A stretch of DNA of 62,724 bases, the filler included, from Dugesia japonica (lineage: Eukaryota), in assembly GCA_001938525.1 (NCBI GenBank). It is 5 parts of 5 records of this genome, joined end to end, with 100 filler letters (N's around TTAATTAATTAA, not from the genome) between each part and the next. Parts side by side here need not be neighbours in the genome. Positions count along the whole stretch, not along the records: positions 52,079 to 62,724 come from MQRL01613106.1; 4 more parts are not named here. The stretch is one strand, 5' to 3'. The position numbers and the translations under genes were made by a program. The notes under the pieces were generated by a model. That model did not search any database. It was not told the DNA's origin and saw nothing but the letters and a program-made list of their open reading frames with translations. This document shows, in pieces, positions 11,090-62,479 of the stretch. The first letter of the stretch is position 1. Each line of letters begins with the position of its first letter.

Positions 11090-12192
11090 AATCATTTGGT
11101 ATAATTTTTATTAATGAATTATTTATGTATCATTTTTAATCGTGAATTTTTTTGGTATAATTTTTAATCATGAATTTTTTTGGTATATATTTCAATCATG
11201 AATTTTTTTGGTATAATTTTTCCTAATGAATTATTTTGGTATAATTTTTAATCGTGAATTGTTTTGGTATAAATTTTAATCGTGAATTTTCTTGGTATAA
11301 TTTTTAATCATGAATATTTTTAGTATAATTTTTGAATTTTCTACAGTAAGAATTATTTGTATTTAAATTTTCAAAAACATACCCTCTCATAACTAATTCA
11401 ACAATATGATGCTAGAGCAGGCTTCCCTCATACCCCAATTTAACCATTACTATTTTTAGGGGGAATTATTTCCACGGGGAAATTATTGCATGAACCCTAA
11501 TTTTTCATAATGAATTTGTTTGGTATAACTTTTATTATAATGTTTGGTATTTTTTTTAATAATCGACAGTAATAATTTTATAATATTTGCAAGAGATAGT
11601 TTCAAGCGTTGTGCAGGGATATCAAGGGGAACAGGATAAGCCGAAATATTGGAGAAGATTAGCCAACTTGCAGTAGTAACACGTTAAGATAAAGCAGTGA
11701 TTACTGTATAATATAATTCAAAGAATAAAAATTTTTCTCGTAGTGTCAAATCTTCAAATCATTTACATTTTTTAGGTCAAATGTTGATTTTTAAGTGTAT
11801 TTTATATTTTACTTATATTATTATATCAGTTATTTTATCTTACATGTAATTTGACAAATTTATAAAATACATGTGTGTTAATCTTATTGAAATAAAAAAG
11901 ATTATTTATAAATAAAATTATTTTAACAAATGTCAATCTGAATTAAAATAAAAATACATTATTAAAAATTATATCAAAATATTTCACCTTGGAAGTAATT
12001 TCCCCTTGGCAATAATTTCATCCTGGAAATAGTAATGGTTAAATTGGGGTATGAGGGAAGCCTACTCTAGCATCATATTGTTGAATTAGCTATGAGAGGG
12101 TATGTTTTTTAAAATTTAAATATAAATAATTCTTACTGTAGAAAATTGAAAAATTATACTAAAAGAATTCATTATTAAAATTTTACCAAAAA
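11090..12192. repeat. ~30-bp tandem repeats (11090-11330) plus a ~200-bp inverted repeat pair (~11290-11490 / ~11990-12192)
   Basis: TTTGGTATAATTTTTAATC(A/G)TGAA units; GCTAGAGCAGGCTTCCCTCATACCCCAATT is inverted to AATTGGGGTATGAGGGAAGCCTACTCTAGC. Confidence 0.8.
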
Positions 12193-12655
12193 ACGATCAA
12201 TAGTTAAGTCCAACAATTATTCTCGCAATAATTGCAATTGTAAAAGAGTTATAAAAACTTAATAATCGCCAATGACTGTAATTTTTAACTAATCTCTCTA
12301 TTGATAATCTTTATTATGAAATAATAACTATTTTGACGATTGCTATTATTAAATAATCGCTACTTTATGATAATTTCTATAAAGTAGTCGCTGTTTATAG
12401 ATACAATTAGAAACTCCGGAAAATCAAATTCTAATCGCCTGTAAACTCAAACAATCCGTGATTGAATATTCTCATTTCTTTTAAAAATTCATCAACATAA
12501 TCGATTCAGGATTTCATAAAATTAAATAATTTTGCCATTTGAAATAATCGCTATTTTGTGATCGCCATTATAAGCGTAAACCCGTCTTCACAGGTTCCTA
12601 AATGAAAATATTAAATAATAAAAATAAATAAATACAATTACTTGAAACGGATATA

Positions 12656-16451: not shown

Positions 16452-16846
16452 ATTTCTTTTGGTTTTTTTATTAGATGGAACTGAATTGAATTATTTCTTT
16501 CTGTCGTTGGTTTATTCAATCTTGGATAATCTGGATAATCATCATATTTTATTGTTTTACTTGTATAAATCCCTCCATTCATCTGATTGATTATATCAAT
16601 TGTGATGTCATGCTTGAATGGCCAAAATAAATCTTTATCGAATTCTCCCCTCACCAAATGAAAATAAACACCAGCATAATCGTATTCGCCACCGATCCAC
16701 ACACTCAAACATATTTTATATCCATTATCATGTGAATAAAATGATTCACTGAAAATATATGTTTCTCGTTTTTGTTGAGATAAATTTTCAATTTTCCATT
16801 CAAATTTGCCAAAATTCATTTTTTCTTTTATCTCGATTATTTTCAT
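16452..16846 (-). CDS. TRAF-family MATH domain (partial, bounded by gaps)
   Basis: GKFEWKIENL...IFSESFYSHDNGYKICL...GVYFHLVRGEFDKDLFWPFKHDITIDIINQ is a canonical TRAF-C/MATH sequence. Confidence 0.88.
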
Positions 16847-16858
16847 TTGTAAATTATT

Positions 16859-20572: not shown

Positions 20573-20669
20573 ATATATAGCTTTTGAAGAATCGGTTATG
20601 AAATAATGTCTGAGCACTAAAACCATACACACATTCAAACAGTCAATCACACATTCACTTATTATCACA
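20573..20669 (-). mobile_element. LTR-like repeat fragment just upstream of the LicD-family gene
   Basis: Matches 47368-47465, which lies next to a Gypsy PPT, and starts TGTGATAAT on the minus strand. Confidence 0.6.
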
Positions 20670-20715
20670 TTACTCATTTAGGATTTATAGAAAACTGCAA
20701 TTCTTTATTTCCTCT

Positions 20716-21647
20716 ATGTCAGCCTCAAAATTCAAAAAGAAAATTTTCGTTTATACAATTTCGATTTCAGCAATTGTCTTATTATTTAATTTATACCAAT
20801 CAATTAAGTTGCAACATTTAAAATTTGTTTACAAAGAGCATTTCAATGAGATTATGACTACTTTACAAAAACTGAAAACCCGTGATTTGTTAATGGTTTT
20901 CAAAAGACAACTAGAGCTGTATAATATAACATATTTATTATATGCCGGTTCACTACTTGGTGTACATCGACATCATGGGATAATCCCATGGGATGATGAT
21001 ATTGGTATATTACTTTATTCCTTTCGTTTTTTCATTTACTTTATTTAGACATGCTAGTAGATGGATCGAAGAAAGAGTTACTAAAAACAGCACTTACTGT
21101 TGACAACATATATTTCATATCTTTCTATGACGGTGATGAAACATGGAAATGGAAGTTCTATAATAGATTCGGAGAAGGATATCCGAACAAATCATTTCAT
21201 TATCCATACATCGATATGTTTTTCTATAAACCCTTTAATGATGTCGCATTCAAAGTGGAAATGACAAATAATTCTTTACTAAAGAAGAACTTATTTCCGT
21301 TGGTTTATAGAAGTTTTGAAGGATTTTCTTTACCGACTCCTTGTAATACCGAAGAAATTTTATATGAAGAATTCGGCGATGTAGATATTTGTGTCAGTCC
21401 GTCGTGGAATCATGTAAAAGAGGATCACATGCCAGAACGTCAAGGAATTTCCGCCAGTTGTCATTTATTAAAACGGTATCTACCGTTTACGGAAAGATTT
21501 ACTGAAATTATTGATGATAAATTTTACATTAAAGAAACACTTTTTATTAATAACAAGAATCTTCAAACCGTTGAATATTTTCGACCAATACTTTGTTCGG
21601 GACAAAATTCGTATTTTAACTCCAATCTTACTATCAAGCGTTTGTAA
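20716..21647 (+). CDS. LicD/fukutin-family phosphotransferase, 2 exons (20716-21004, 21049-21647), 295 aa
   Basis: N-terminal hydrophobic anchor. [26 protein letters not shown] is completed by splicing the 44-nt GT-AG intron 21005-21048. Also YPYIDMFFY, LFPL..RSFEG..LPTP and L...FG. Confidence 0.92.
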
Positions 21648-25721: not shown

Positions 25722-26626
25722 TTCATTAAAATAAAAGCTTCAATCAAATTATTTTTGTTTTTGATAGTATTTACTATATTGCACTAAAAAGTAAAATATA
25801 TAGAAAATTGTACAGAAAATTTAATGATAAATAAAATTTTAAAACATCAAGTGTTATGATTAAAATTAAAAGTCTGAAAATGACTTCTTTGCTAACTTTT
25901 TAAAATCATAATAGCCATAAAATTTAGTTAAAAAAATGACTACAGTAAATAAAATCTTTAAATGTGAAAAAGAATTTGGTAACAGAAAATTGTTAAATCG
26001 ACAAAAAATGTAGATGTTATATATTAATGTATTATTCTTCGTTTTAATGATAATAAATGAATTTTTTAAATTATCCAGACGATAAACTTAATTTTAAGTT
26101 TTTTTTGCATAGTAAACTAAGAACAAATTTCATCAACTTTCATCAAGTTAATAATTACGAAATATTAACATATTAACTGTTTATTCGTTTTATGAAATAC
26201 CTGATAGTTTAAGTGTCATTGTTCAGTTCAAAAAAAGTATTCCGAACCACCAGTTTGATATTTAAAACGACCAGATAAATTTGAAGTTGTACTCAATACT
26301 ATTTTTGTTATATTTAATACGATTTATTATATCGGGTTGAATGCATTTTGTGACGTGCAAAATTTATTGCTCTGAATAGATTTTTTTACGTGTAATCATA
26401 TATTCCGGGAACCAGTTTTATCTTTTCGCAATTACAAAAATTGTTCTGTTGAATTTTCAGAAAGCTATTGATAAGATAAAGCTCAAATAAATGGTTAATT
26501 ATGATCTGAATTGATTTCTACCTCGAATAAAAACGTAGTATTTACTATAACAAAAATGTTATAATATTTAATTTAGGTTTGATGATAGAAAATTTAAATA
26601 TAAAGGAAGGAACTGACAAGACTGAC

Positions 26627-29316
26627 CTGATTCACAATATTTCACATTTAAATATTCATTCTTCAAGGAATTTTCTAATAAAGAATTCTTCCGATAATAA
26701 ATTATGTATTTTGTAATTAAACCATTTGGGTAAAGTGGAGGTTTCCAAAATAATCGAATTTCATCCGGAGCTTGAGAAACCGCCTCGACTATTTGAGGTG
26801 GTGTTGGCACTGTAATTCGTTTATGCTAAAATTGAAAACTTTAAATTTGGAATTACTTTTAGTTAAGGTTGTAAATGACACGCGATTACTGATTGCCGCT
26901 GAACCTTGTGTAATAAAACGATATTCTAAATAGGCTTGGTAGCTAGTTGCAGGTTTCAAGTCAGAGAGTGAGCACACAAATTCCGCATCATTATCTTGCG
27001 GCCATAAAGATGTCGATTCTATTTTTTCACCAGTTTTATTGTTTTTACATTGAGCTTCAATAACTGACCACCTAGATATGAATATATATTCTGATTCTAA
27101 TTTCATACAAATATCGATTTAAATTATTTTTAATTATATCTTCAAAACTTAGAATAAAAACCCTAATATGCCCAAAATTTTGAAATTAAAATAACATATC
27201 ACAAAACTGATAATACAATATTTCCAATTAATTTATATAGTATTCCATATGCTCGTGCGATTCAGTAACATTTGGAAATATTTTAAAATTATAATAAAAC
27301 TATAAATTATTAATAAATTTTAATAAAATTATAAAACAGATGATAACAACTAATTTAAAATAATTAACATAATTTTCAACTAAACGATTTTATATTGAAA
27401 CAAAATAACTTTAATGATCAGATTAATACAGCAATATTAAAGATACTCATTTTTACAATGACAAATCTAATGATCTTGCATGAATATTGGAAAATAGCTT
27501 GTCTTATTATTTAAAAAAGTGAACGATTTTTAAAGAACATGTATTAGTAATTTTAAAAAACAATGGGGTGAATTAACAAAAAGTTATTTGGTTTGATATA
27601 AATCCTGGAATGGAAAAAAGTAAAGACTCAAATTTCAGCCAATGAAGAACCTAATCTTCCTGTAGATAAATGTAAATTTTGTATCATAGTAATATATAGT
27701 AATATAATAATGTAGTATCTATAGTCATGGGATAGATTGCGATTTATACTTTTATTCATATTTCAATTATTACTTATTCTTTTGATAACTGCGAATTAAA
27801 CATTATATATAATTAAAGTTTCTGCAGTAGAATATATATTGAATAAACATTAAACTGAGCCCGTTACCAAGACACTATGAACGAAAAACATACATCTGAA
27901 GCAGTGATATCACCAGTGTTTATAGCCGGTGTAGTCTAATAATACTCTATTTTATAAATGGTGTGTGCAAAAATATCGCATCCTCTCACTAGAAGGAAGA
28001 AATATGTAAAGGAATATTAAAAAATTTCCGTAGATAAAACTTTTAAACTAACATGTAAATTTTATCGCTTTTTAAGTGAGCGACTTAAATATTTAATTTT
28101 TATTGCTCCAAAAAAACAGTCACTATCAACTATTTACGTAAACAAGCTTGAACGTTAAAGAATTAAAAAATTTTCACTTATTAAAAATTTCTATTTCCTG
28201 AGATTTCTCGAGAAAACATTCATTTCTCGATTTCTGGAGACTTTTAAAAACCATATTCTCGAGATTCTGAAATCTTTCATTTTTATGATTGAAATATTCT
28301 AACATTATCGAATTGATAGTTTATATTTTATAAAATTGTTTGAAATTTAAAAATTTATTTAAAAACATCGAGAATAATTAAATTGATAAGTTCTAGCATT
28401 ATATTTTGTTTTTTCTAAAATTTATTAATACCAATGGTATTTATTTTTTAAAAAAACAAAGAAAATCGATTTCAAATCAAAGCAAAATACTAACTGTGTA
28501 GATTAATTACAATTGAAATAGATAAGAATTACATAATTTATGTCTAGAGATCGATAAATATTTCCTATTACAAATTTTATTCATCATCTCATGTAATGAG
28601 TTTAAAACGGATCACATTTAACTGTTGCCACAATAGTTAGATAGTTATGATAGCCACACCCCCCCCCCGACAGTGAAATTTTGTCCAGTTAACCGGTTAA
28701 ATCTTTTAATGGCTCCTCTTTTGCTTTTTGAATGTATTCAGTACTCTTGTTCAAATCTTCCATTTCTTAGCCTCTTCATGTGATATTTGACATTGTACAC
28801 ATCACATCTTGGTCCAGATATCATATCTGCATAACCATGTTGAATTCCTACTCTATATTTTAATATCATGTCTAGACTATTAAAATAATTAATTAATGTG
28901 ACATGGTGGGTTTTTTCGTTGTCATCATGAAAGTAATAAATTTTCATTAGATTTTAAAAATTTTTTATTATAGCCATTTAATAATTGCTTAAAAATTTGT
29001 TTTAATAATATAAACTGGTCAATCTCATATTTTTAATTTTGTCTGATGAAATATATTACAATTAAGATTTATTTTAAATTGCCTCATTTATTTTCAATTA
29101 AAATTTAATAAATATATCAATTATAAAATACTAGAACTAACATAACAGATGAACAACCAGCATCAGATGAATCACCATTTTGCATATTATTTGATATTGA
29201 TCTATAATATATGAGACCACTCAATACTTGATACGAAGTTCGTACATTCTTCCAAGAAAGAATAACATCTTGAGAATCGATTTCAGTAACCGACAAATTC
29301 AGTTTAACAAAATTAC
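26627..29316 (-). CDS. Insulin-receptor-like protein, FnIII-1/FnIII-2 exons (29316-29142, 27071-26857, 26809-26627)
   Basis: VILSWK...GLIYYR...DAGCSS..WSV; LKPATSYQAYL; PTPP...IRLFWKPPLYPNGLITKYIIYY...KYC follow the InR ectodomain. Splice phases are compatible. L domains and kinase were not seen. Confidence 0.75.
28740..28900 (-). mobile_element. Small Gypsy pol fragment
   Basis: INYFNSLDMILKYRVGIQHGYADMISGPRCDV is homologous to 4310-4410. Confidence 0.75.
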
Positions 29317-37760: not shown

Positions 37761-39461
37761 GATAAGGAAATGTAATGTGTTAATAGTTGAAGTTATAATA
37801 ATAATAATAGTAGTAGTAATTATAAAAATGGGGTACCAGCTACATTTCGCATACGCCATGTCAAAAAGTGATGGGTTACCAACTACGTTACCCATATGCC
37901 AAGTACCAAAGGTGGTTAGGAATAAACTAGATTAGACATAGAAAAAACCGATAAAAGTGGTGAATTATGAATATGAATTTGGTATTTCTGTCTGGTATTT
38001 TGATTATTTCGATAATTTTTTTTATAAATTAAATTATGTTTATTATAAAATGGCTACAAACACAATTTACGAGTGTAAGAAATGTAATAAAAGATTTACA
38101 AATAAGAAATATTTAAAAAGACAAGCAATTTTGTTTAAATAAAAAAGAAGACTGTGTTTGTAATATATGAAATAGAAAATTTAAAGCATTGTCTGGCTTA
38201 AAAAGTCATCGAAAAGGTAAAAAAATTAATAAAGATTTAAATGTAGAGAGAGAATATATATATACATATCCACTATTTTGGTCTATTTTGTCAGATTTTC
38301 TCATATTTTACCGCATTTTACCATATATTCTTTATATTTATGTATTAAGTTTCAAACGATCATAGTAACTCATGGTTTATTGTATTAAATAAAGGATTGC
38401 ATCCATTAAAATTTGAGTTTAATATATGTTTCAACATGAGAAATATGAGTTTTATCTTGTGAAATATATATATTCCTTTTCGTTCCTTGCTTATTGACAT
38501 CACTGCTTGCTCTTTGGTTTTGTGGGTTTCATTTTCTTTTAAATATTAAATTATCAATAAATAAATTTATGGTCTCATCAATAAGAATATAAAAACTACT
38601 GGTTTTATCATTGATATTTATTGATATTTGCCACACTTAGACTAACACAGGAACGAGCAAATAATACTTATTCGATTCTTTCTTATTCAAACTACGTTTC
38701 GCTTCATTCTCAATAAGTTTCGTTTTTTTGCATTGTTAGAAAAATGATAAGTAAGGAAAAGAGAGAGAAGAATCAAATTTACTGAAACTCGTGAGATTCA
38801 ATCTGAAATTTTATAGTAGTCAATAAAGATTTTATGAAATTTCACAGATGTCGATAAATATTGTCTGAAATTTCACAGTAGCCGGTAACACACTCAAACA
38901 ACCTTCACCCAAAAATTATACCATCAAAATCAACCCAAATACCCAGAATAAAAACAATACCTCCAAAAAAATATTTCCCGCCAAATTTTTTAAATTCAAA
39001 AAAAATTAAAACCAAATTTAAAATTCCTCAAAAATACTCCATGGATTTAAACAACATCAATTGTTTTTTCAAATTTAATCCGTTCAAAAATCTGATTGGC
39101 TCGAAATTCTTAAATCAATAAATTCACGATAACATAATGCATAGTTTTTCAGATCAGTTACATATTTCCGCTAGGGGCAGATGATCTGATGCGCTCACAT
39201 CTACCTACTTTTAATGAAAGATAAAAAAATATACAATTGATTCAAAAGATTTATTCATCCTGAAAACCTATATAATAAAAATTTTAAATCGATAACATGA
39301 TTTAAATCAATAAATAAACAATAAATGAAAACGGGTAAAAGAATCTCAAATTACAAATTATGTTTTACTATAAAAATGTACCAAATAATATAAAATAATT
39401 TTATGAAATTAATTTCGAATTTGAAATAGAAAACATTTGATTTCATCAAAAAACNNNNNNA

Positions 39462-41074
39462 CCTGTTTTACAGTATTTGCCAATGTATTTTGAAGGTCCA
39501 CAATCACAATAAAACTGTCCACGCCAAAGATCAATACAATGACCATTATTTGAACACGAAGCTGAGTTACAAACCGGTTTGCAATAAGGAAGAATCATTT
39601 CTCCAACATGATATCCAGATGTCGCAAGTTTTAATTGGACATGTTTAATTGTGAAAAACATCACACATCCCAATAAATTGGTATAATAAATTCTCAATGC
39701 CGCAATATTTTGAAATTTTTGTGTATTCTTAGAAGATGGCGTGTTTCCGATCCATATAAAAACTTCAGAACTTCTTTTAGAGTTGTTAAAAATTGGTATA
39801 GGCAAATAAAATGATTCTAATTATTGTATTAAACTTATAAATAAATAAATAANNNNNNNNNNNNNNNNNNNNNNNNNNNNNNNNNNNNNNNNNNNNNNNN
39901 NNNNNNNNNNNNNNNNNNNNTATAAAAAATTTACCACGAAACATATCCAAGTATATTGATTGTAGAGGTTTCTGAGGTTTATCATAGTTAAAAGTTTCAT
40001 ATTTACCATTAGAATGTATTTTTAATTCATTCTCGTCAAAGTGAAATGTCATATTGAATTCATTTTCATTCTTAGTGATGTCTATTTAAATTAATAATTA
40101 TATTAATTAATTAATATATATTGATAAAATTTATAAATTTGAGTCTTGATATAAATTTCATTTTTACCATTTTATTCACATAATTATTCACATATTGTCA
40201 CCTTAATATAGACAACTCCATTGAAAATAGACTCTCTAATGTGTTTTATTAGCCAATTAATCATAAACTTCTAACATAAAAATTTATTCAATTATTAAAA
40301 TTCTAACCATTTATTCAAAAACCTATTATTAACCTTTTAAATTAATTAATTAATCAATTCTCAAAATTTATGAAGTTTTAAAATTAATCAAATAGTTTAT
40401 TTACCACCAATGAAAAGCGAGACCAGTAGAGTGAGAAAATAAGGAAAGAGTGAACACATGTGAAGAGCGGGAACACCATTGATAACTAAAGATGATTTTA
40501 CAATTGACTGAAGACTAGCACACAATGGGCAGAGTTTGGATAACTGAATAACAGTTCACGGTTAGCAGAGCAATGATAGAAAAGACCAATGAAAAGTAAA
40601 TTATCCCCTAAAGGANNNNNNNNNNNNNNNNNNNNNNNNNNNNNNNNNNNNNNNNNNNNNNNNNNNNNNNNTAATTTTAACAGTAATACTGTTTGGAATC
40701 ATCCATTATTTAATATTACTAGAAAACTAGTTACATGAAGTATAAGATAGTTTTTGTAAACAGATTAAAATTTTTTGTATTTTAAAGCTGAATCTATTAA
40801 AATCAGATGTATTTGGATTTGTAATAGTAAAACAGCATCTCTGTAGTTAAGAACTACATTTATTTCTTAAGTTTTTACTTCGTCTTTTATGTTTACTCAC
40901 TCTTTTATTAATTTAAATATATCTTTTACTTTTCTATTTTTCCTGATTTGATTTTATTTTTAATCCTTTTGTCGTTACAACAATTCATTATTAGTTCTTT
41001 TGTTAAGTCATCTTTGTTACATTTATGAGCCATTAACTTCTCTACCATTTTTTCTATCATTGAATCGCCATTAC

Positions 41075-52517: not shown

Positions 52518-52958
52518 AATTAATTTTTCTTCTTTTCAATGGTTTTCATTTTCCATATTATTCCTGTAAAAGTAATAAATTTTTAAAAAAATTTTATCTC
52601 TACATGGATCATTCATTTTGTGTCATCACCACTTGAGTTTTCGTCTCTTTCTTTGAAGTTGATAAAAACTGCTTCATTTATTTCAATATCCTTGCTTAGC
52701 TTTGAAAATAGAGCTTCAAGAATGTTCCTGTCTTTTTCGTTGATTCCAGATATTAATAAATTATACTTTGATCTTTTAATCATAACAGATTTCTAAAACA
52801 AAATTTAATTATAAAAAAAAGAAATAAAAAATTACTTTAAATTCGTAAATAATTGGATTCTTCAGGAAGTACATTTTGTGATGCTGGAAATCTGAAATTT
52901 TTCCTAGTTCCAAGCCAATTGTTGTCACATTTTCTTTATTGAGCATATTTTCTTGCTT
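52518..52958 (-). pseudogene. Unknown gene X, copy A (spliced; intron 52835-52793)
   Basis: KQENMLNKENVTTIGLELGKISDFQHHKMYFLKNPIIYEFK|KSVMIKRSKYNLLISGINEKDRNIL...VFINFK; homologous to copies at 54830-55264 and 59132-59330. Confidence 0.65.
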
Positions 52959-53043
52959 TTTCAATTGTAAAAGTGATTAATTTTACGAAAACCACTATTT
53001 ATATACTCGTCATGATACATACATGCTCATTATCTTCTAGTTT

Positions 53044-53115
53044 TTATTGGTTGTTATCGGTTTTATAGGAAATTATTGGTTGTTATCGGTTTTATAGGAA
53101 ATTATTGGCTGTTAT
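53044..53115. promoter_or_regulatory. 29-bp tandem CCAAT-box repeats in the divergent promoter between gene X copy A and gene Y
   Basis: ATTATTGGTTGTTATCGGTTTTATAGGAA x~2.5. On the minus strand a TATATAA follows at ~52999-53005, and the same layout occurs upstream of 59132. Confidence 0.55.
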
Positions 53116-53281
53116 TTTTAACGATTGGTCATTATTTCTTATAGGTGATATGATTCGTTATTTTTCTTTTTAATTGTTATGATTTGTTAACGGATTTATA
53201 TTAATAGGACTGGTTTTCAAGGAAATTTCATTCTTTTTTAAAATAAAATACCCATTTTTACAAATTTAAACGTTTTGAGAG

Positions 53282-53783
53282 ATGAAAATATGTATGCTGA
53301 ACAAAACAAAAACAAATATGGAAGATATCCGGACTAAAAAATTAGTTAATATTGACGAAGAACAAATAATAGAAGAAATATTAAAAGAAAACATCAATGA
53401 TGAAGAACAGAGGCCTAATCAAACTAAAATTGAAGTAACATGTGATTGTAAGAATCAGAAACCTGTTCAAGATATTTTAGAGTTGAAGGATCATTTTTAT
53501 GGTAATAAATTTGATTAATGTTAATTTATTTAATTTAATTTTTTAAGAACTAGTGACTGGAATAGTGAATGAACGTTTTCCAGCATTTATAGAAGAATGT
53601 ATTAATATGAATTCAGAACAATATTGGCATTATGTTTTAATAACAACAAGAATTGATATTGATGATCTGATAGATGATTTCATTTTGGAATTGGAATTAG
53701 AGTCGCCAACTAACAGAAACCAGACTCATTGTGAGATTCTAAAGGATTCCATACTTGCAGCAGCTGAAGAATATGAAAATTAG
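53282..53783 (+). CDS. Unknown acidic protein Y, 2 exons (intron 53502-53547), apparently intact
   Basis: A 46-nt GT-AG intron joins ...LKDHFY|ELVTGIVNERFP... in frame with no internal stops. Confidence 0.6.
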
Positions 53784-54149: not shown

Positions 54150-54650
54150 GCCGAAATTAAAATAAATAATTAAATATAAAATAAATAGAACATTTATAGA
54201 AAATGATTTAATTAAGTCTTAACCAGCTTATTGCGCAAGATGTAACAAGCCAAATGAAGTTCACTATCGGTAAACCTTCTAAATTTGTTGAAAAAAGTTA
54301 GAAATATACAATTATATTCTTAAAATCCGGGAATTGTCGAATTATGGGATGCAAATAACCAATATAAATGGACAGATTACAATATGATATTAAAAACATT
54401 CGATTGCAATCATTGACAATTTTAATCAATTTGGGTGTGACAGTTAATATGTATAAATTAGTAAAAATAACAAATGTTTGTTTGAACCGGAAATATTTCC
54501 AACATTACGTTTTACAAAATATTATCCAACATGTGTAAATGTATTTGCAACAGGAAAAGTAGTGATATTTTGACTCAAGAATTTACATTTTTAGAGTTTT
54601 GTGGATAATATAATTTTTGATTTGTATAATTTATTTGATAACATTCAATA
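54150..54650 (+). pseudogene. Divergent compact TBP-like gene, copy 1 (disrupted)
   Basis: YTIIFLKSGNCRIMGCK...IRLQSLTILINLGVTVNMYKL...FEPEIFPTLRFTKYYPTCVNVFATGKVVIF parallels TBP repeats (ALIFSSGKMVCTGAK; YEPELFPGL...LIFVSGKVVLTG). Confidence 0.75.
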
Positions 54651-54829
54651 AGAATGCAATCCTATTTCAACAAGCCATGTAATTAGTTGATTTATACAAA
54701 TATGAACTTTATAAAGTAATTTTGTTGTATAAATATATTTTTTATTTTGTTTTTATTTAGTTTTTATTAAGAAATAAAAAATAACAAAATATATGTAATA
54801 AATTTTTATTAATAAACATATTTTAATCG

Positions 54830-55264
54830 ATTTTTTGAGCACATTTTATTCTCCACATTGGTCAAATAATAATGTCAAATTTTTTATATGGTTGCATTTT
54901 AATTCTAATCATCCATTTATGCGAATTGTGATATTCAATATCATATGTATTTTCAGGAACATCCTTTGAATTAATAAAAAATTTATCTTTTATATAATTG
55001 ACGAGTCAACTCTTTGAACGATTTGAGTTAATATCGTCAAATCATTGGAACATATTTCCTATTTAAGCATACTGTATGTTCATCTTTTCAACTTAACAGG
55101 TTCTTAAAACAAACTAATAAATAAATAATAGATAATATTACTTGAAACGTATATATTAGAGACTTTTTGAAGAAATTCATCTTATAATGATGATAATCCA
55201 CGAGTTTTCCACATTTGACATTAACAATTGAAGCATTATCCTTTGTTAAAATGATTTCTTTCAT
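54830..55264 (-). pseudogene. Unknown gene X, copy B
   Basis: MKEIILTKDNASIVNVKCGKLVDYHHYKMNFFKKSLIYTFQ|EPVKLKR*TYS...FFINSK; intron at the same position as in copy A. Confidence 0.6.
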
Positions 55265-55329
55265 TTTCAAGTAATGAAAATTTATTATAAGATTCAGATT
55301 ATATACCTTTAGGTGCGCAATGAAGCGGT

Positions 55330-56790
55330 TCGTATGAGAGCAACCAAATAACTACGAAATTCTCACAATACTTTGAATGTCCGTCAATCTGGATCAAGCA
55401 AGCTCAAGGATTTCCAGGATATCAAGAGAAGATTCTAAGTACCTCCATTTTTTCTCAAACTTACGGTCAGTGACAACTTTTCAGGAATTGTTTTATACAG
55501 AATCCGAAACATCATATACAAATTTTTGAGAAGTTATAATTAACAATGGCAAACTACTGACTTCAAATCATGTTGATAAAATGTTTCCCCTAGAACTTCT
55601 GGGATATCAAAGCTTGTCAGATCGTCTTTGACAACTACACAGACACTTCAAAGAGATAGAACCTAATTACAAAGATGCAGACAATAGCATACATTTAAGA
55701 GATAAGAGCGATGTCTCAAAATATCATGCCTCGTCTCGTCTCCAACAAAAACTGTTTTTTGACTGAACTAGGACAATTGGCTAACAGACATGCGCAAAAA
55801 TAAATTTTCACAAGTTGTTCACAGCATCTCGAGTCAAACAAATACAAGCAAAGAACAGCAACTACGGTATGAGATAAATTAACTTAAAATGGTGCATTCC
55901 AGGGTCAACGAAACAACAGATCTAACACGAGCTCTTTACGTATGACCAAAGATGAAATGGACGAGGCAATGTCACAGAAGTTAATGACGAAAAATGGCAC
56001 AACATACGCAATTTCCACTTGAACGTCTTCCAGAATTAGGATGGTTTAAAGTGATGCACATTGATATTTTCAAACCTCTACCTCAATGTAAAGGAAAGCA
56101 ATTCATTCTGACGATGATCGATCGTGAAACATCTTGACTTGAAGCCATACCAGTAAATGAGATAACAAAAAGCAATTGTAGATGCTGTCAAAAAGTTGGG
56201 ATCAGTAGATTTGGCCCACTGGAGTTCATAATTACTGATTAAAGAAGACAATTTATTTCAAATTAATTCAAAGAAATGTGCAAGAGATACGGAATCGATC
56301 ACCACAATACAACAGCATACCATCTACAATGTAACGGTAAAATTGGAAGACTGTGTGGAACCATAAAAACTGCTATTTGAACACTTAATACAACTGCAGA
56401 ACGGACAGGGTCTATTGACTTGCCTATAGTCATGCTTGTACTAGAAATTGCAACAATTACAGGTCAACGAACCTCACGAGTGCAACTCGTCTATGGTTCA
56501 TCAACTCACCTCCCAGGATACATTATTCCAACTACAGGTATGAAAATTGCCATTACGAAAGAAAATGTTCAGGGTGCAATTTAACCGGTGGACCAAATCT
56601 ACTCGAGATAAAAAAGCTACCTACTATAACAGAAAGAACCATATTCATTCTATCTGTTCTAAAATATTTCGAACAAGTATGGCTCCAAGAACCTAATCCA
56701 ACAAGCCTTCAATCCCCAAACGAAGGGTCATATCGTGTCATTTACAGGAGTACAAATTTAATAACATTTGAAATTGACATCGTATTCCGG
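55330..56790 (+). mobile_element. Gypsy RNase H/integrase remnant
   Basis: HIDIFKPLPQCKGKQFILTMIDR...LEAIPV; FGP...IITD..RQFISKLF; TTAYHLQCNGKI. Confidence 0.85.
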
Positions 56791-56821
56791 AGATCTTCAA
56801 ACTGCGTTTGGGGTTATTTAA

Positions 56822-58845
56822 CCCTTTTGCTCCTATTGGGACAATTCGTCCAGAAACTTTCATCATGATCTTACTTGGATGTTTTCAAAGCCATTTGCGG
56901 TGTTTCATTGTTCTATTTGAATTTAAAATATTTACTATTAGGATTTTTCTTATACTTCTGTCAATTTAATTTAAATCGTGGATGGTCTTTTGTTGTACAG
57001 TAAATTTACAAATTTTAAGTGTTTTTATAAAAATTAAAAAAACAACATAATATTTTATTTTNGGAGCATAAAAATAATCGATTTACATTATAAAAAGTAA
57101 GTATTAATAAAATTTGTAGAAGATATTCGTAGTTTTTACTTTTGGAATTAAATATCCCAACAGTATTTTATGGATTGGTTAATTGGGATATATGGTCCCA
57201 ATAGTATTTTATATTAATGTTTTTCTAATTTGTTTTTAAAAATAGAATGTCTACCAGAAATAGAAATGTCCTGGATCACGAAATAGAAGCACTTATGAAT
57301 GCTAGTAGCGATGATAATGATCCAGATTTTGCAGTTTTTTTAGACAGATACGGAATAATTGCCAAGTGATGTTGAAGAAGCAAATGAAAATATTGAAAAA
57401 ATAGTAAATCAATCTAACATTGATGAAGAAGATATTCAAATTGAACAAAACATCATACAACATGATATTTGGGTTGCTACGGCTGAAATCTTTCGTCCTC
57501 GTATGGAAATACAACCAGATATTCCGCCCAGTATAATTGCTGAACTAGATAGGTCAACAAGTGAGTTAGAAACTTTATTGAAAATCTTTCCTATAAGTTT
57601 ATTTATTCATATTGCCGATTGCACAAACAAACGGATTGATATATTAGAAGCAACAACCAAACAAAAATATACAAAAACTATCTACTCTGAAAAAATGATA
57701 GTTGTTGATGTTACGCTTATCATGTCCTATAATTGCTTGTCAAATCTGAGTTGTTACTGCTCTCTAAAAAAAGTAAAGGAAATGAACTCATCAAATTAGC
57801 CATATTGAGAGACCGGTACTCATTTCTAATGAGCAAGATGTACTTCGCTGTCCCACAAAAAACTTATTATATTGATGACTTGGTGTCATGCTTGAAAAAT
57901 AATTTTATAAATGTCAGAGAATATATTACTTTCCAAAGCATTAATGAAAGTAGGGTGAAATTGAAAGAAAGATCCAGCCTCAAACAATATCTTCCCCTAA
58001 AGCCGATAAAAATAGGTATTACAATTTGGGAACGTTGCGACCCACTAACCGGATATATATACGACTTAAATATTTATTGCGAAAAGGAAACTTCACATCA
58101 AGCTGGTACATAAGGTGAGCGAGTGGTCAATAAGTTTATTTCAACAGTAGCTAAGAGAAATGTATATTTCTGTTTTGATCGGTTTTTTACATCTGCAAAA
58201 CTAATAAATGAAATTCAATATCTGGCTGAAGGCACATGCATGAAAAACAAAATAAATATTTCGAAGTCTATTAAAAAAATTGAAGAGAAGTAAAAGGGTT
58301 GTGTTGAATAATCAATTTGGTACTTCTTGCATAGTATGGCAAGATACAAAAAAAAGTACTCTGTTTGTGTAATTGTCATTTCAAATTTCAACAACTCAAC
58401 ATAAGGCCAACGCAAGCAAAAAACTAGATATTACTTGCCCGGAAGCTATAAAATTTCATGAAAAATAAATGGGTTGTGTATATCTCTTTGATCAAATGGT
58501 ATCTTCTTATGATAGCAACAGAAAATCTAATAAGTGGTGGATGAAGATATTTTACAAATTGCTGCAATCAGCTTGCGTTAATTCTTGGATAAGTTTCAAA
58601 GAAATTTGTCATAAAGATAAATTACCTTACTTTGAATTCCTTTTAGAAGTGGCTGAAGATTTGATTGAAATTGGTTAAAAGAATGCACCCATAAAAAGGA
58701 TGCGAAGTTATGATCGTCTCTCAAAATCGGTGCAAAGTTTGGTAAATGTTGGTGATCATCTTTCTGTTGAATGTAAAGAAAGACTTAGATGTGTAAATAT
58801 ATAAATTTAGCTTAGTGTCATCAGCGGAAAGTCGGTGAGAAAGGG
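56822..58845 (+). mobile_element. piggyBac transposon, near full length, degenerate
   Basis: TTAA|CCCTTT...AAAGGG|TTAA termini. QSINESRVKLKERSSLKQYLPLKPIKIG.TIW.RCD.LTGY; FDRFFTS; MGCVYLFDQMVSSY...RKSNKWW.KIFY. Confidence 0.92.
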
Positions 58846-59131
58846 TTAATGACTTTTAATTATATTACATTTAAACAAATTCATTTTGTTTAAATAATAT
58901 AATTTAAAAGAAAATCAGAAATTTTAATTTTAGTAAATATTGCCATTTTGTCCTTTATTTATGGATTCAAAATTATACGAACTCAACAATATCAATTAAC
59001 ATAAATAGCAACCAATCATATCCTTTAAAACAGGTAACGTCCAATAGAAACTAACAAATATCGAGTATGTATGTATAGCAAAAGTATATAAGCAGTGGTT
59101 TTCGTAAAATTAATAACTTTTACAATTCAAA

Positions 59132-59330
59132 ATGCAAGAAAATATTTTCAATAAAGAAAATGTCGCAGCAATTACTTTGGAAAATTTATGACTTTAAAGT
59201 AATTTTTTACTTCTCTTTTTATAAATTTATATTTTCTTTTAGAGACCTGTTATGATAAAACGTTCCAAATATAGTTTTTTAGTATCAGGAATTAATGAAA
59301 AAGTTAGGAATATGCAATATATTATATATG
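59132..59330 (+). pseudogene. Unknown gene X, copy C (truncated)
   Basis: MQENIFNKENVAAITLE...DFK|RPVMIKRSKYSFLVSGINEKVRN; same intron position and upstream sequence as copy A. Confidence 0.65.
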
Positions 59331-59459
59331 CATAATAAAAAACCAGAACATAATATATTTAATTATTTGAAAATAAAATATCTAAATTTAAATTGATATT
59401 ATTTGTACTTGGGTTGTACTTGTATTGCATCTGTATTCCGAATTTTTTATATTTTTTCA

Positions 59460-60082
59460 ATCAAATTAAAACAATCTGACGTGATATTATCCATATTTCC
59501 TTGAAAATTCAAATTTCTAAGTCCAAGTATTACTAGTTTTCTTGTTGAGAACACATTTACACATAAGAGGGTCTTATTTTATCGATCTTTAAGCAGAGAA
59601 TAACTCTGGTTCAAACCAATAATGACCATCTTTTCTACTTTATCCAAATGAATTGAAACTTTTATATTTACGACAATTGTTGACGACTGTAATTGTATCA
59701 TAGGAGTTCAAATCATGTTTATTTAAAATAAAAGCATCAATTAAAATTTGTTTTGTTTTGGTTTTGGATAAAACTTCATTATCAAAAACCAAAAAAACAA
59801 TTTTTGATAGATGCTTTTATTTTAAATGAATTTTAAAAAACGATCAATTGTTACGTTCAACAATTATTCTCTCAATAATTGCAATTGTAAATCAAATCAT
59901 GTTGTTTCAGTGGTTTTTGACAACCAATTATTCTTCATTTATCTGATCTGAATAATATAATTGTAAACTTGTCACTTTTGACTTTAAATTGACATGGTTT
60001 GCCTATAGCAAAGGAAAGCTAATTTTCTTAGTTATTTCTTGCGTCACTTAACCTCTGTAATTAATATTGTTTATCATAATTA
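59460..60082 (-). pseudogene. Divergent compact TBP-like gene, copy 2 (disrupted by an insertion)
   Basis: INNINYRG...IGKPCQF...FTIILFRSDK*RIIGCQK...IQLQSSTIVVN...WFEPELFSA...CVNVFSTRKLVILGL. Confidence 0.75.
59720..59891. mobile_element. 172-bp hairpin insertion with a 12-bp TSD (Penelope-like terminus)
   Basis: Flanked by TCAAATCATGTT at 59708-59719 and 59892-59903. Internal inverted ATTTAAAATAAAAGCATC...GATGCTTTTATTTTAAAT. Confidence 0.8.
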
Positions 60083-60186
60083 ATGAATTAATGGGTGAAC
60101 ATTGGTGTTTTGATAGAATTAATTTAATTGATCTGTTAAAACAAATAGCAACAATGTACTAAATTATTAATAATTATAAAAAGAAG

Positions 60187-60790
60187 ATGGAAAAATTAAG
60201 AAATGATGTAGTATATCAAATGGTTGAACCTCGTGGTAGTGGGAAAACTTCATTTTTTGTAAATTATTGAAATCAAATTTATTCAAGTCAAACTTAAAAA
60301 CATATATATATTAGCATAGGGACGCAGATGAAGAAAATGGTCTGACTAAATCTTAATTTTGTAATATTAAAATGAAAATAATAAATGGTTTTGATAAATA
60401 TTGGAGCAAGAGATTGAAACCAGGTGATGTTATTGTTGTTGATGATTTGTTTATGAAGAAAAATATTTTAATAATTTTTTTTACAAAGATATCATGACAT
60501 TGTAATGTGACTGTGATATCTATTACTCAAAATCTATTTCAACAAGTAGATAGTTATAGAATTTAAATGTGCAATATTTGATTCTATTCAAAAATCAAAC
60601 TGTTGCCAATTTTCTAACAAAACAAACATATCGAAATAACAGACAATTTCTGATTGAATCATTTCAAGATGCAAAAAATATTCCCATGGATATTTATTTC
60701 TTGACTTTACACAACAATGTCCAGATGACTATAGAATGAGAACTGATATATTTAGTTCAAGTGGTATAACTGTGTATAAAGAAAATAGGT
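60187..60790 (+). pseudogene. Maverick/Polinton packaging ATPase (A32/FtsK-like), disrupted
   Basis: Walker A PRGSGKT, Walker B VIVVDDL, FTKIS.HCNVTVISITQNLF, LNVQYLILFKN and HGYLFLDFTQQCPDDYRMRTDIF. Confidence 0.88.
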
Positions 60791-61134
60791 TATTTTATGA
60801 ATATTATATAAGATGGCAAAATTTAAATAAATTGTAGTTGATCAAGTTACTAATGATGGTGTTGTTAAATAACAAAAAAGCCTGCTGTGAAGAAAAAAAG
60901 GAAACAATCGCATAAGAAACAATCACATGAGAAGCAATTTCTAAATAAAAAAAGCAATTGAATATGTTAAAAAAAACTTGCGAAAATAGCGGAAAGAAAC
61001 TGAAAATTATGAATGGAAAATGGATATCATTATAAAATATTCGCTGGTATGTATGTTTTATTGAAAAAGAAATGAAATTAAAAAGAAGTATTTCGTTTTT
61101 CACCGCCTTGATTAAATCATCAACATTTTCTAGA

Positions 61135-61355
61135 ATGAAAATTTTGCAATCATTTCAATCGTATGTTGCAGAGGATTTAATTGAGATTATTGTAAAACGA
61201 AAGTATTGAAAAAACAAAGAAACATTATTAACGCTTGTAAATGCAAAAAATAGGAAATTGATGAGACGAGTAGTAATGAATAATCGAGGAGGTGACTTTA
61301 TAGCAGCATTACTACCAATTGCATTAGCTACATTACGCTCAACTCATTTCAAATA
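61135..61355 (+). pseudogene. Polinton small basic core-like protein remnant
   Basis: RKLMRRVVMNNRGGDFIAALLPIALA resembles the GG-F-..LLP protease-cleavage-type motif of Polinton/adenovirus core proteins. Confidence 0.5.
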
Positions 61356-61499
61356 AACAATGGTCTTATAGCAACATTTGAATAAACAATGCGTGAATTA
61401 AAATCATTACCTAATTTTAACCTGAAATTATCATCGAATCGTTGTAATGGGAAAACTGAAGACAATATGGACGGATTTAAAAACCTGCTCGGTTTTTGA

Positions 61500-62220
61500 G
61501 GCGTAGAAAATTTCATGGAAGCAGCTCAAAAAACCTAAAAATGACGAAAAAATGGTTATTGGGTCAACTAGTGTACAGTTTAAACAGGCCAAAAGATTTC
61601 TAATAAGACCATATAAAATATATGGTATTGATGATTTATGGCAAATGGAATTAATAAGGATCACAAGTATATTTTTATATGTAAAGATGTATTTGGTAGT
61701 TTTCCAAGAGCTGTTCCAGTTAAATCAAAATCTGCTAATGATATGGAATCAAGAATCAAGTCAATCTTTAAAAATGAAAATCCAGATAATCTACAAACAG
61801 GTTTGGGTAAGGAATCTTACAATTTCAAAGTGAAACGACTTAATAATCATCTAAAAATAAACCATTATAGTGTATTCTCGCTGTACAAAGTTGAACATGT
61901 AGTGAAATTTAATCGTACATTGAGAGATGTTTTGAAAACATACTTTGAACATGTTGGTAATAAGACTTGAATAAATGTTTTACCGAAACTTATTTATAGT
62001 TACAATCATTCGAATCATAAGTTATTAAATAGAGCAAGACCGGATAAGTATAAACAATCAAATAAAGTTATGGTAATCACAAAAACATCCAAAAGCAAAT
62101 AGAAAACCAAAATATGAAGTTGATGATCATGTGAGATCCTCAAAAATATCAGCTTCCTTATTTATTAAGAATTACAGTAATAATTTGAGTGATGAAGTGT
62201 TTTAAATTACAAATATTAAC
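61500..62220 (+). pseudogene. Maverick/Polinton retroviral-like integrase, disrupted
   Basis: GIDDLWQM...KYIFICKDVF...AVPVKSKS...PDNLQTGLGKE.YN...KFNRTLR...INVLPKLIYSYNHS.H...PKYEVDDHVRSSK...LSDEVFKI. Confidence 0.9.
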
Positions 62221-62479
62221 AGTAGCACGATCGCGCCAACCGTTTGACTTTTGATTTGATTGATTATTGATTTTTGAAGTGATTAATAATTGATTTTTGA
62301 ACTTTTTGTTTTGTTTAGAGTGCAGGGGAGGGAAGAGAAAGGAATGGAGGTGTGGAACACAACATCATTCACTACTAAAATATTTAATTTTTACTTTTAA
62401 AAGTTTTTAAACTATATAAATATTTTTGTACAAAAAAATTTTAATTAACCGTTAACTACACATAATTTTCGTACCAAAA

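Follow-up and report, generated by a model that had tools for sequence, protein, structure and literature searches.

Decayed TBP-like genes beside Polinton relics

The window analyzed here, a stretch of 62,724 nucleotides joined from five parts of the Dugesia japonica genome assembly GCA_001938525.1, is AT-rich, gapped DNA with animal-type exons and numerous transposon relics. It holds two decayed copies of a compact gene resembling the one for TATA-binding protein (TBP), copy A (54200–54650, plus strand) and copy B (59450–60077, minus strand), the latter lying next to relics of a Polinton (Maverick) element. The TBP repeat motifs reported in the initial annotation are visible in both copies upon frame-wise translation, FEPE being readable in each, and the frameshifts reported there are indeed present, together with stop codons. 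Using tblastn with the intact relatives P0001 and P0002, presented in the next section, copy A aligns over 54230–54472 with 69% identity (E = 7e-34) and continues in a second frame up to 54648, the two frames containing five in-frame stops (3 + 2); the first ten or so codons of copy A, before 54230, are not alignable, and the interval first assigned to it was 54150–54650. Its C-terminal piece matches the Pfam TBP family (PF00352) with E = 6.7e-4 and 19.9 bits, under the cut-off of 22.9, and against a profile built from the family of relatives copy A yields E-values of 6e-19 and 2e-18.

Copy B had been described as one TBP-like frame, a description that overlooked an insertion of about 195 bp (59699–59892, without assigned strand). 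The copy is recovered by tblastn in the pieces 60077–60009, 60024–59893 and 59698–59450, with a further frame at 59618–59565, and is broken by frame changes and stops as well as by the insertion; alone it gave no match to Pfam, and the family profile recognizes it with E-values of 2e-9 to 3e-8. The insertion comprises an imperfect palindrome of 113 bp (59718–59830, 84%) and 63 bp similar (89%) to 12179–12244, where an inverted-repeat element ends. Elements resembling miniature inverted-repeat transposable elements occupy 11288–12193 and 1702–2237 of the window, the former having an end to which this insertion is related. At the edge of the insertion RNA and DNA reads accumulate and then continue into dissimilar sequence. 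Read mapping for expression covered the copy B region, on which nearly all reads come from other copies (at least 99% identity in 5 of 2088; X10), and their strand bias is uninterpretable. In a set of contigs labelled as the same species, 17,173 match the copy B region, 532 of them with at least 99% identity, and the element family is therefore high-copy in that set.

The two copies are themselves dead relics. They probably derive from two insertions, since their DNA identity is just 67–70% and piggyBac-type and gypsy-like debris lies between them; their closest intact relatives also differ (P0002/P0007 for copy A, P0011/P0013 for copy B).

The initial annotation had placed copy B some 100 bp from, and divergent to, a Polinton packaging ATPase followed by a core-like reading frame and an integrase, and this arrangement was borne out. 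Between the start of copy B and that of the ATPase at 60187 there are 110 bp, and the two genes stand head-to-head. The decayed A32/FtsK-type ATPase (60187–60790, plus strand) is detected over 60246–60786 in three frames with E-values of 8e-20 to 6e-12 by a profile of the relatives' ATPases, which themselves match Pox_A32 (E = 5e-6). Downstream on the same strand lie a decayed basic core-protein gene with the GG-x-F motif (61027–61335; profile E = 2e-11 over 61072–61293; tblastn 37% identity, E = 4e-20) and a decayed Polinton-type rve integrase (61466–62232; profile E = 3e-41 over 61466–62229). The core protein of one relative shows a weak match to Adeno_PX (E = 0.005). Within the window, which stops 0.5 kb past the integrase, neither Pfam nor the relatives' gene profiles revealed relics of a pPolB, a capsid or a protease gene, and no long inverted pair bracketing the Polinton relics was found there.

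Intact relatives, their genomic context and predicted fold

The N-terminal half of copy A, used as a query with X at the stops, retrieved three intact proteins of 147–152 residues that are 58–69% identical to it (3 of 3 candidates) and match Pfam TBP with E-values from 4e-15 (P0001) to 1e-12. A profile search extended this to 501 family proteins out of 1204 candidates, the length being 140–165 residues in 109 of the best 120, and searching 50% representatives yielded 59 clusters at a threshold of E ≤ 1e-30; at E ≤ 1e-10 there were 752, canonical TBPs among them. In the ESM Atlas, look-alike TBP clusters are labelled archaeal on very few records.

For the genomic context we used the loci L001–L080, the best 80 of 181 relatives found among 368 pattern matches on metagenome contigs. 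A Polinton hallmark (ATPase, integrase, pPolB, adenain or PLA2X) is present on 45 of the 80, and on 30 of the 36 contigs of at least 3 kb; the remaining six of these contigs carry accessory genes common to hallmark-bearing contigs. By gene, the A32/FtsK ATPase is found in 28 loci, the integrase in 19, pPolB in 8, the capsid in 12 and adenain in 13, and the names assigned by Pfam are pPolB (PF03175, E = 3e-23), rve-chromo integrase, Pox_A32, Peptidase_C5 and PLA2. A gene of about 410 residues corresponds to the double jelly-roll capsid according to its Atlas look-alikes and to a PF21738 protein that it matches in a profile comparison; a sequence search of the PDB gave it no name. This inventory of pPolB, rve-chromo integrase, A32 ATPase, adenain, PLA2X and double jelly-roll capsid resembles that of alpha adintoviruses and animal Polintons (PMC8502044), and the linkage to Polinton genes proposed from the window is seen around intact TBP-like genes, with pPolB and capsid among the linked genes. 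In 26 loci the TBP gene and the ATPase occur on one contig: in 23 of these the two genes have the same orientation and the ATPase comes downstream, in 2 they are divergent as in the window, and in 1 the ATPase is upstream (L062 was recounted owing to overlapping genes). Alignments of TBP, capsid and ATPase retrieved no relatives from IMG/VR.

Small unnamed genes, clusters c3, c13, c15 and c21, adjoin the TBP gene in many loci, c3 often flanking it. They gave no match to Pfam, and their likeness to single-strand DNA-binding proteins is an impression by eye, profile comparisons among them being weak (64% probability at best). The accessory genes include leucine-rich repeat, E2 ubiquitin-conjugating-like and RING finger proteins and KilA-N with zinc fingers (L029:1918–3327, L012:225–719, L047:1710–2168, L056:13315–13893, L080:606–1739).

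The ratio of nonsynonymous to synonymous substitution rates (dN/dS) is 0.055–0.26 in 13 non-overlapping pairs with dS < 0.95, and at the level of sequence the intact family is under purifying selection. In an unrooted tree of 61 rows, which left out the host's TBP/TRF, TRF2 and giant-virus TBPs, all 12 canonical TBPs fall on one side of a branch with 100/100 support, and the closest relatives of the window copies nest within Polinton-linked sequences. We give almost no credence to the explanation that copies A and B are ordinary processed pseudogenes of a host TBP or TRF amid transposon debris. It agrees with the graveyard character of the region and with the broken state of both copies, but these are about 60% identical to the compact Polinton-linked proteins, whereas the family, as judged from P0001, is only about 27% identical to canonical TBPs; the 100/100 branch sets the latter apart, albeit in a tree without the host's own TBP/TRF and TRF2, and the neighbours ATPase, core, integrase and c3 are common to the window and the relatives. 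That the TBP-like gene represents a real Polinton gene family is well supported.

The initial annotation knew of no description of TBP as a Polinton gene. The adintovirus gene list of Starrett et al. 2021 does omit it in the accessible text (PMC8502044, section 8); the label "TBP" nevertheless occurs there in the legend of Fig. 5, in the section on non-animal datasets. This label is the only printed link between TBP and the Polinton/adintovirus group that we found, and subscription papers, Repbase, figures and bioRxiv supplements may mention the gene. The accessible portions of PMC11161782, PMC12220804, PMC11071296, PMC11131425, 10.64898/2026.06.19.733378 and 10.64898/2026.10.13.758929 contain no mention of TBP or TATA-binding, and the terms polinton, maverick and adinto occur 0 times in the supplements of PMC7221094, as far as these are accessible.

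The predicted model of intact P0001 (predicted local distance difference test, pLDDT, 96.4) is a two-lobed TBP saddle: Foldseek comparison with known structures gave E = 2.4e-9 and a template modelling (TM) score of 0.70, and every listed match at E ≤ 0.001 is a TBP. The C-lobe is complete, with 79 of 83 Arabidopsis TBP positions aligned, and the N-lobe is reduced (69 of 97), its first helix being shortened and its long second helix gone; in the model there is no helix of at least 4 residues between strands 45–51 and 65–77, and the positions of yeast K138 and K145 align to gaps. The length of about 150 residues and the short linker inferred from the decayed copies hold for the intact relatives, but the shortening lies in the loss of the long N-lobe helix and not in the linker alone.

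Residue conservation was counted over 113 aligned relatives, with P0001-type numbering mapped by alignment to Arabidopsis TBP. Three of the phenylalanines that kink DNA in TBP, F41, F100 and F116, are kept in 113/113 each; the YEPELF-loop glutamates that bind TFIIB/Brf in cellular TBP are retained as well (E96 in 108/113, with D in the other 5; E98 in 113/113). On the DNA face, near-invariant new residues have appeared, namely N6 (110 of 113), R47 (112), M49, S71 (110), T73, C112 (113) and N114 (113). In the alignment these correspond to yeast V71, V122, T124, N159, V161, V203 and L205, where the yeast numbers are taken to be those of Arabidopsis plus 42, an offset that we assume. Longer members of 165–190 residues (P0202, P0204, P0227, P0236, P0252, P0256, P0257; L077) retain more of the N-lobe and have the same changed DNA-face residues. 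Since the DNA face is already changed in members with a longer N-lobe, its re-specification may predate the shrinkage, as far as sequences in an unrooted tree can indicate. TBPm3 is altered in its TATA specificity at three positions, yeast V203 and L205 among them (accessible text of PMC1636458).

Compared with cellular TBP (PF00352; PDB 1ytb, 1cdw, 1mp9), the protein, hereafter mini-TBP, shares the saddle fold, three kinking phenylalanines, the YEPELF loop with both glutamates and the N-lobe asparagine. It is unlike cellular TBP in its length (about 150 vs. about 180 residues), its identity of about 27%, the loss of the long basic N-lobe helix that forms the regulator surface, the proline at F99, and the polar residues at V71, V122, V161 and L205. 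According to alignment and model, mini-TBP is a TBP-superfamily member that lacks two canonical TBP features, the four kinking phenylalanines and the long basic N-lobe helix.

Promoter boxes and a candidate late-gene factor

The region 15–70 nt before the first ATG was scanned in loci L001–L080 after removal of near-copies, and two promoter classes emerged. The box TATAAAC precedes virion and packaging genes in 40 of 90 cases (shuffle mean 1.33, maximum 5; reverse complement 0), made up of 12/24 ATPase, 13/18 core, 8/13 PLA2X, 4/10 capsid and 3/25 c7/c19/adenain genes, and it is found in 28 of 35 informative loci. TBP genes have TATAAAC in 0/61 cases and the canonical TATAWAWR in 21/61 (shuffle mean 3.8, maximum 10); for c3/c13/c15 genes the count of TATAAAC is 1/33. 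An initiator-like TCA[G/T/C]T follows 20/31 canonical boxes vs. 1/65 TATAAAC boxes. Where the box overlaps the last codons of the ATPase, the Tyr-Lys pair is written TAT-AAA in 14/15 cases vs. 36% of other Tyr-Lys pairs (nominal p = 7e-6, related sequences), which points to constraint on the DNA itself at the end of this gene. The conserved protein tails YKQ (C-terminus of the ATPase) and SINK (C-terminus of cluster c19) in L001–L080, with box codons in 14/15 and 4/5, appear from their sequences to be by-products of the next gene's overlapping TATAAAC box.

As a control, 12 Polinton contigs without a TBP match, fetched by ATPase or integrase, showed TATAAAC before 0/25 matching genes and a canonical box before 7/12 ATPases. 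The integrase scan of IMG/VR provided 38 loci, of which L086–L103 were annotated and L104–L123 are weak matches; left out of the control were L088 and L096 (near-copies of L087 and L092), L085 (uncertain ATPase start), L097–L103 (more distant elements) and L081, also fetched by its ATPase, which has both a TBP gene and a TATAAAC box. L081, L083 and L084 are Polinton contigs placed inside bacterial metagenome-assembled genomes, two of them in a tubeworm-endosymbiont bin, probably by eukaryotic contamination.

We consider it probable, though by no means secure, that mini-TBP is the element's late-gene promoter factor, made early from a TATA promoter, binding TATAAAC and recruiting host TFIIB; the proposal is specific and testable. 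The TBP gene would be transcribed early by host TFIID from an ordinary TATA-plus-initiator promoter, and its product would bind the variant box TATAAAC(A/G) via the re-specified DNA face. The retained glutamates of the YEPELF loop would then bring in host TFIIB, followed by RNA polymerase II, so that packaging and virion genes would be driven without TAFs, and mini-TBP would escape regulators of the Mot1/TAF1 type, the basic N-lobe helix being gone. The initial annotation had suggested a Polinton lineage encoding its own promoter-recognition factor or TBP mimic, a suggestion that gains support from the TBP fold, the Polinton-linked relatives and the separation from cellular TBP. Whether a broad animal Polinton lineage uses such a one-protein switch from early to late genes, a TBP of 150 residues that has lost the regulator surface, reads TATAAAC and plugs into host TFIIB without TAFs, we judge to be a matter of even chances.

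Several observations weigh against this proposal. The fourth kinking phenylalanine (yeast F99 position) is proline in the family (P26 in 112/113), and this replacement, together with that of a DNA-face valine by arginine, could mean weak or absent binding to duplex DNA. The distribution of TATAAAC is patchy, with only 3/25 for c7/c19/adenain, 4/10 for the capsid and 0/14 for the integrase, and the box stands before 12/24 genes of cluster c1, which looks non-structural. A large number of TATAAAC boxes are embedded in the coding sequence upstream, and this location could by itself leave no room for an initiator. The loci are related, so that the promoter counts are not independent, and the control is weak, its contigs being partial and mostly of a distant clade, so that shared descent may be all that links the box to TBP. 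In the three closer controls L082–L084, on which no TBP is in view, the core gene is preceded by non-canonical TATAA boxes of a different kind, TATAACTA and TATAAGAC (L082:2781, L083:5244, L084:967; partial contigs), at the position taken by TATAAAC in TBP-bearing elements, and judging from these sequences each Polinton clade may have a private box of its own. The exact TATAAAC was not found before the window's own ATPase and core relics. Finally, dN/dS is 0.13–1.08 in 14 more distant pairs (dS 0.96–1.45, probably saturated).

Some of these observations would suit a different arrangement, in which the gene does belong to the Polinton and the reader of TATAAAC is a host factor (TBP, one of its paralogs or another DNA-binding protein) or another viral protein, mini-TBP binding DNA for replication or packaging instead. 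The variant boxes of L082–L084 without a TBP in view are in line with it, as are the single base by which TATAAAC differs from a normal TATA box and the usual position of the TBP gene beside the packaging ATPase (both on one contig in 26 loci) and the unnamed c3/c13 genes. We nevertheless hold this arrangement to be unlikely: the TFIIB glutamates kept in 108/113 and 113/113 would presumably be needless for replication or packaging, and the TBP gene itself is without TATAAAC (0/61). Moreover, a C in the 3' half of the box is disfavoured in selection assays with a yeast TBP variant and TFIIIB (accessible text of PMC1636458).

The same surfaces could be read as those of a decoy that absorbs host TFIIB/Brf or occupies host TATA boxes and so dampens host transcription, leaving viral genes undriven. 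The TFIIB loop is the best-kept surface, one kinking phenylalanine is gone and polar and charged residues have been added to the DNA face, all of which a decoy would accommodate. Yet the new residues of that face hardly vary across the 113 sequences, in keeping with selection for a particular ligand and not with lost function, and a decoy leaves the separate promoter class unexplained; we thus regard it as distinctly improbable.

With respect to known viral systems, the late-gene model places mini-TBP near the TBP mimics of beta- and gammaherpesviruses, ORF24 of KSHV (Kaposi's sarcoma-associated herpesvirus) and BcRF1 of EBV (Epstein-Barr virus), which likewise combine a viral TBP fold with a polar face, a variant TATA box and late genes. 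According to the accessible text of PMC12529657, the KSHV mimic's DNA face is polar; ORF24, a multi-domain member of a six-protein complex, binds polymerase II directly, reads TATTWAA on late genes and is without the TFIIB glutamates. Mini-TBP differs from ORF24 and BcRF1 as a bare core of 150 residues without extra polymerase-binding or C-terminal domains, with the glutamates kept and with TATAAAC as its candidate box. The TBPs of large nucleocytoplasmic DNA viruses are likewise viral TBPs with a diverged N-lobe, for which evasion of host regulators has been proposed (PMC7221094, accessible text). According to the same text, the loop glutamates, the TFIIB/Brf contact of TBP, are about 40% conserved (C.L3.2) in these viruses, which supply their own TFIIB; unlike these TBPs with their variable glutamates, mini-TBP keeps both, and its identity to the top viral matches is 13–18%. 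No TFIIB match was found with Pfam among the 60 locus proteins scanned, the loci all being incomplete elements.

This comparison bears on a helper dependence, whereby mini-TBP and TATAAAC would plug into the TFIIB-like factor and polymerase of a large helper DNA virus. Such viruses do encode their own TBP–TFIIB pairs (PMC7221094, accessible text), and the P0001 model also matches viral TBPs structurally. Set against the identity of only 13–18% to the top eight viral TBPs, the host-like glutamates and the host-type TATA box and initiator of the TBP gene, this dependence seems to us highly improbable.

If mini-TBP does act as a late-gene factor, it would represent a third way in which viruses manage late transcription, the other two being the herpesvirus complex and the TBP–TFIIB pair of giant viruses, and a natural altered-specificity TBP. 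It would then amount to a natural experiment on TBP, revealing the surfaces that are dispensable and the residues that adjust its recognition of TATA. To our knowledge, the timing of Polinton capsid genes and a true viral cycle in animals are an open question, on which a TBP of the element's own, paired with a separate promoter class, would offer a direct handle: one small protein, a box of 7 bases and one predicted host partner. The value of the window copies is as a pointer to the family.

Other relics in the window

Relics of the c3 gene accompany copy A and probably also copy B. One (54829–54987, minus strand; profile E = 3.7e-6) lies tail-to-tail with copy A, and a second (52619–52907, minus strand; profile E = 2.4e-7, tblastn E = 2e-5) upstream of it. 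A probable third, truncated relic (59005–59313, plus strand), tail-to-tail with copy B, gave no profile match of its own and is recognized by 69% DNA identity, inverted, to 52722–53086. Two small open acidic reading frames upstream of copy A (53279–53515 and 53547–53780, plus strand) are unmatched among the gene clusters of the relatives.

The debris between the two copies is unrelated to the Polinton. A decayed piggyBac-type transposase occupies 57250–58800 (plus strand; PF13843, E = 1e-13 and 2e-5), its outer limits having been read from the sequence. The region 55300–56900 (plus strand), whose stop-free pieces gave no match to Pfam, is presumably gypsy-like integrase debris, as judged by eye from a motif in its translation that we take to be characteristic. 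Elsewhere in the window host-type exons (BSD, TRAF/MATH, LicD, fn3, EGF) at 2362–2790, 16454–16858, 20614–21644, 26571–26825 and 39461–39820 are interspersed with gypsy, mariner and other transposon relics.

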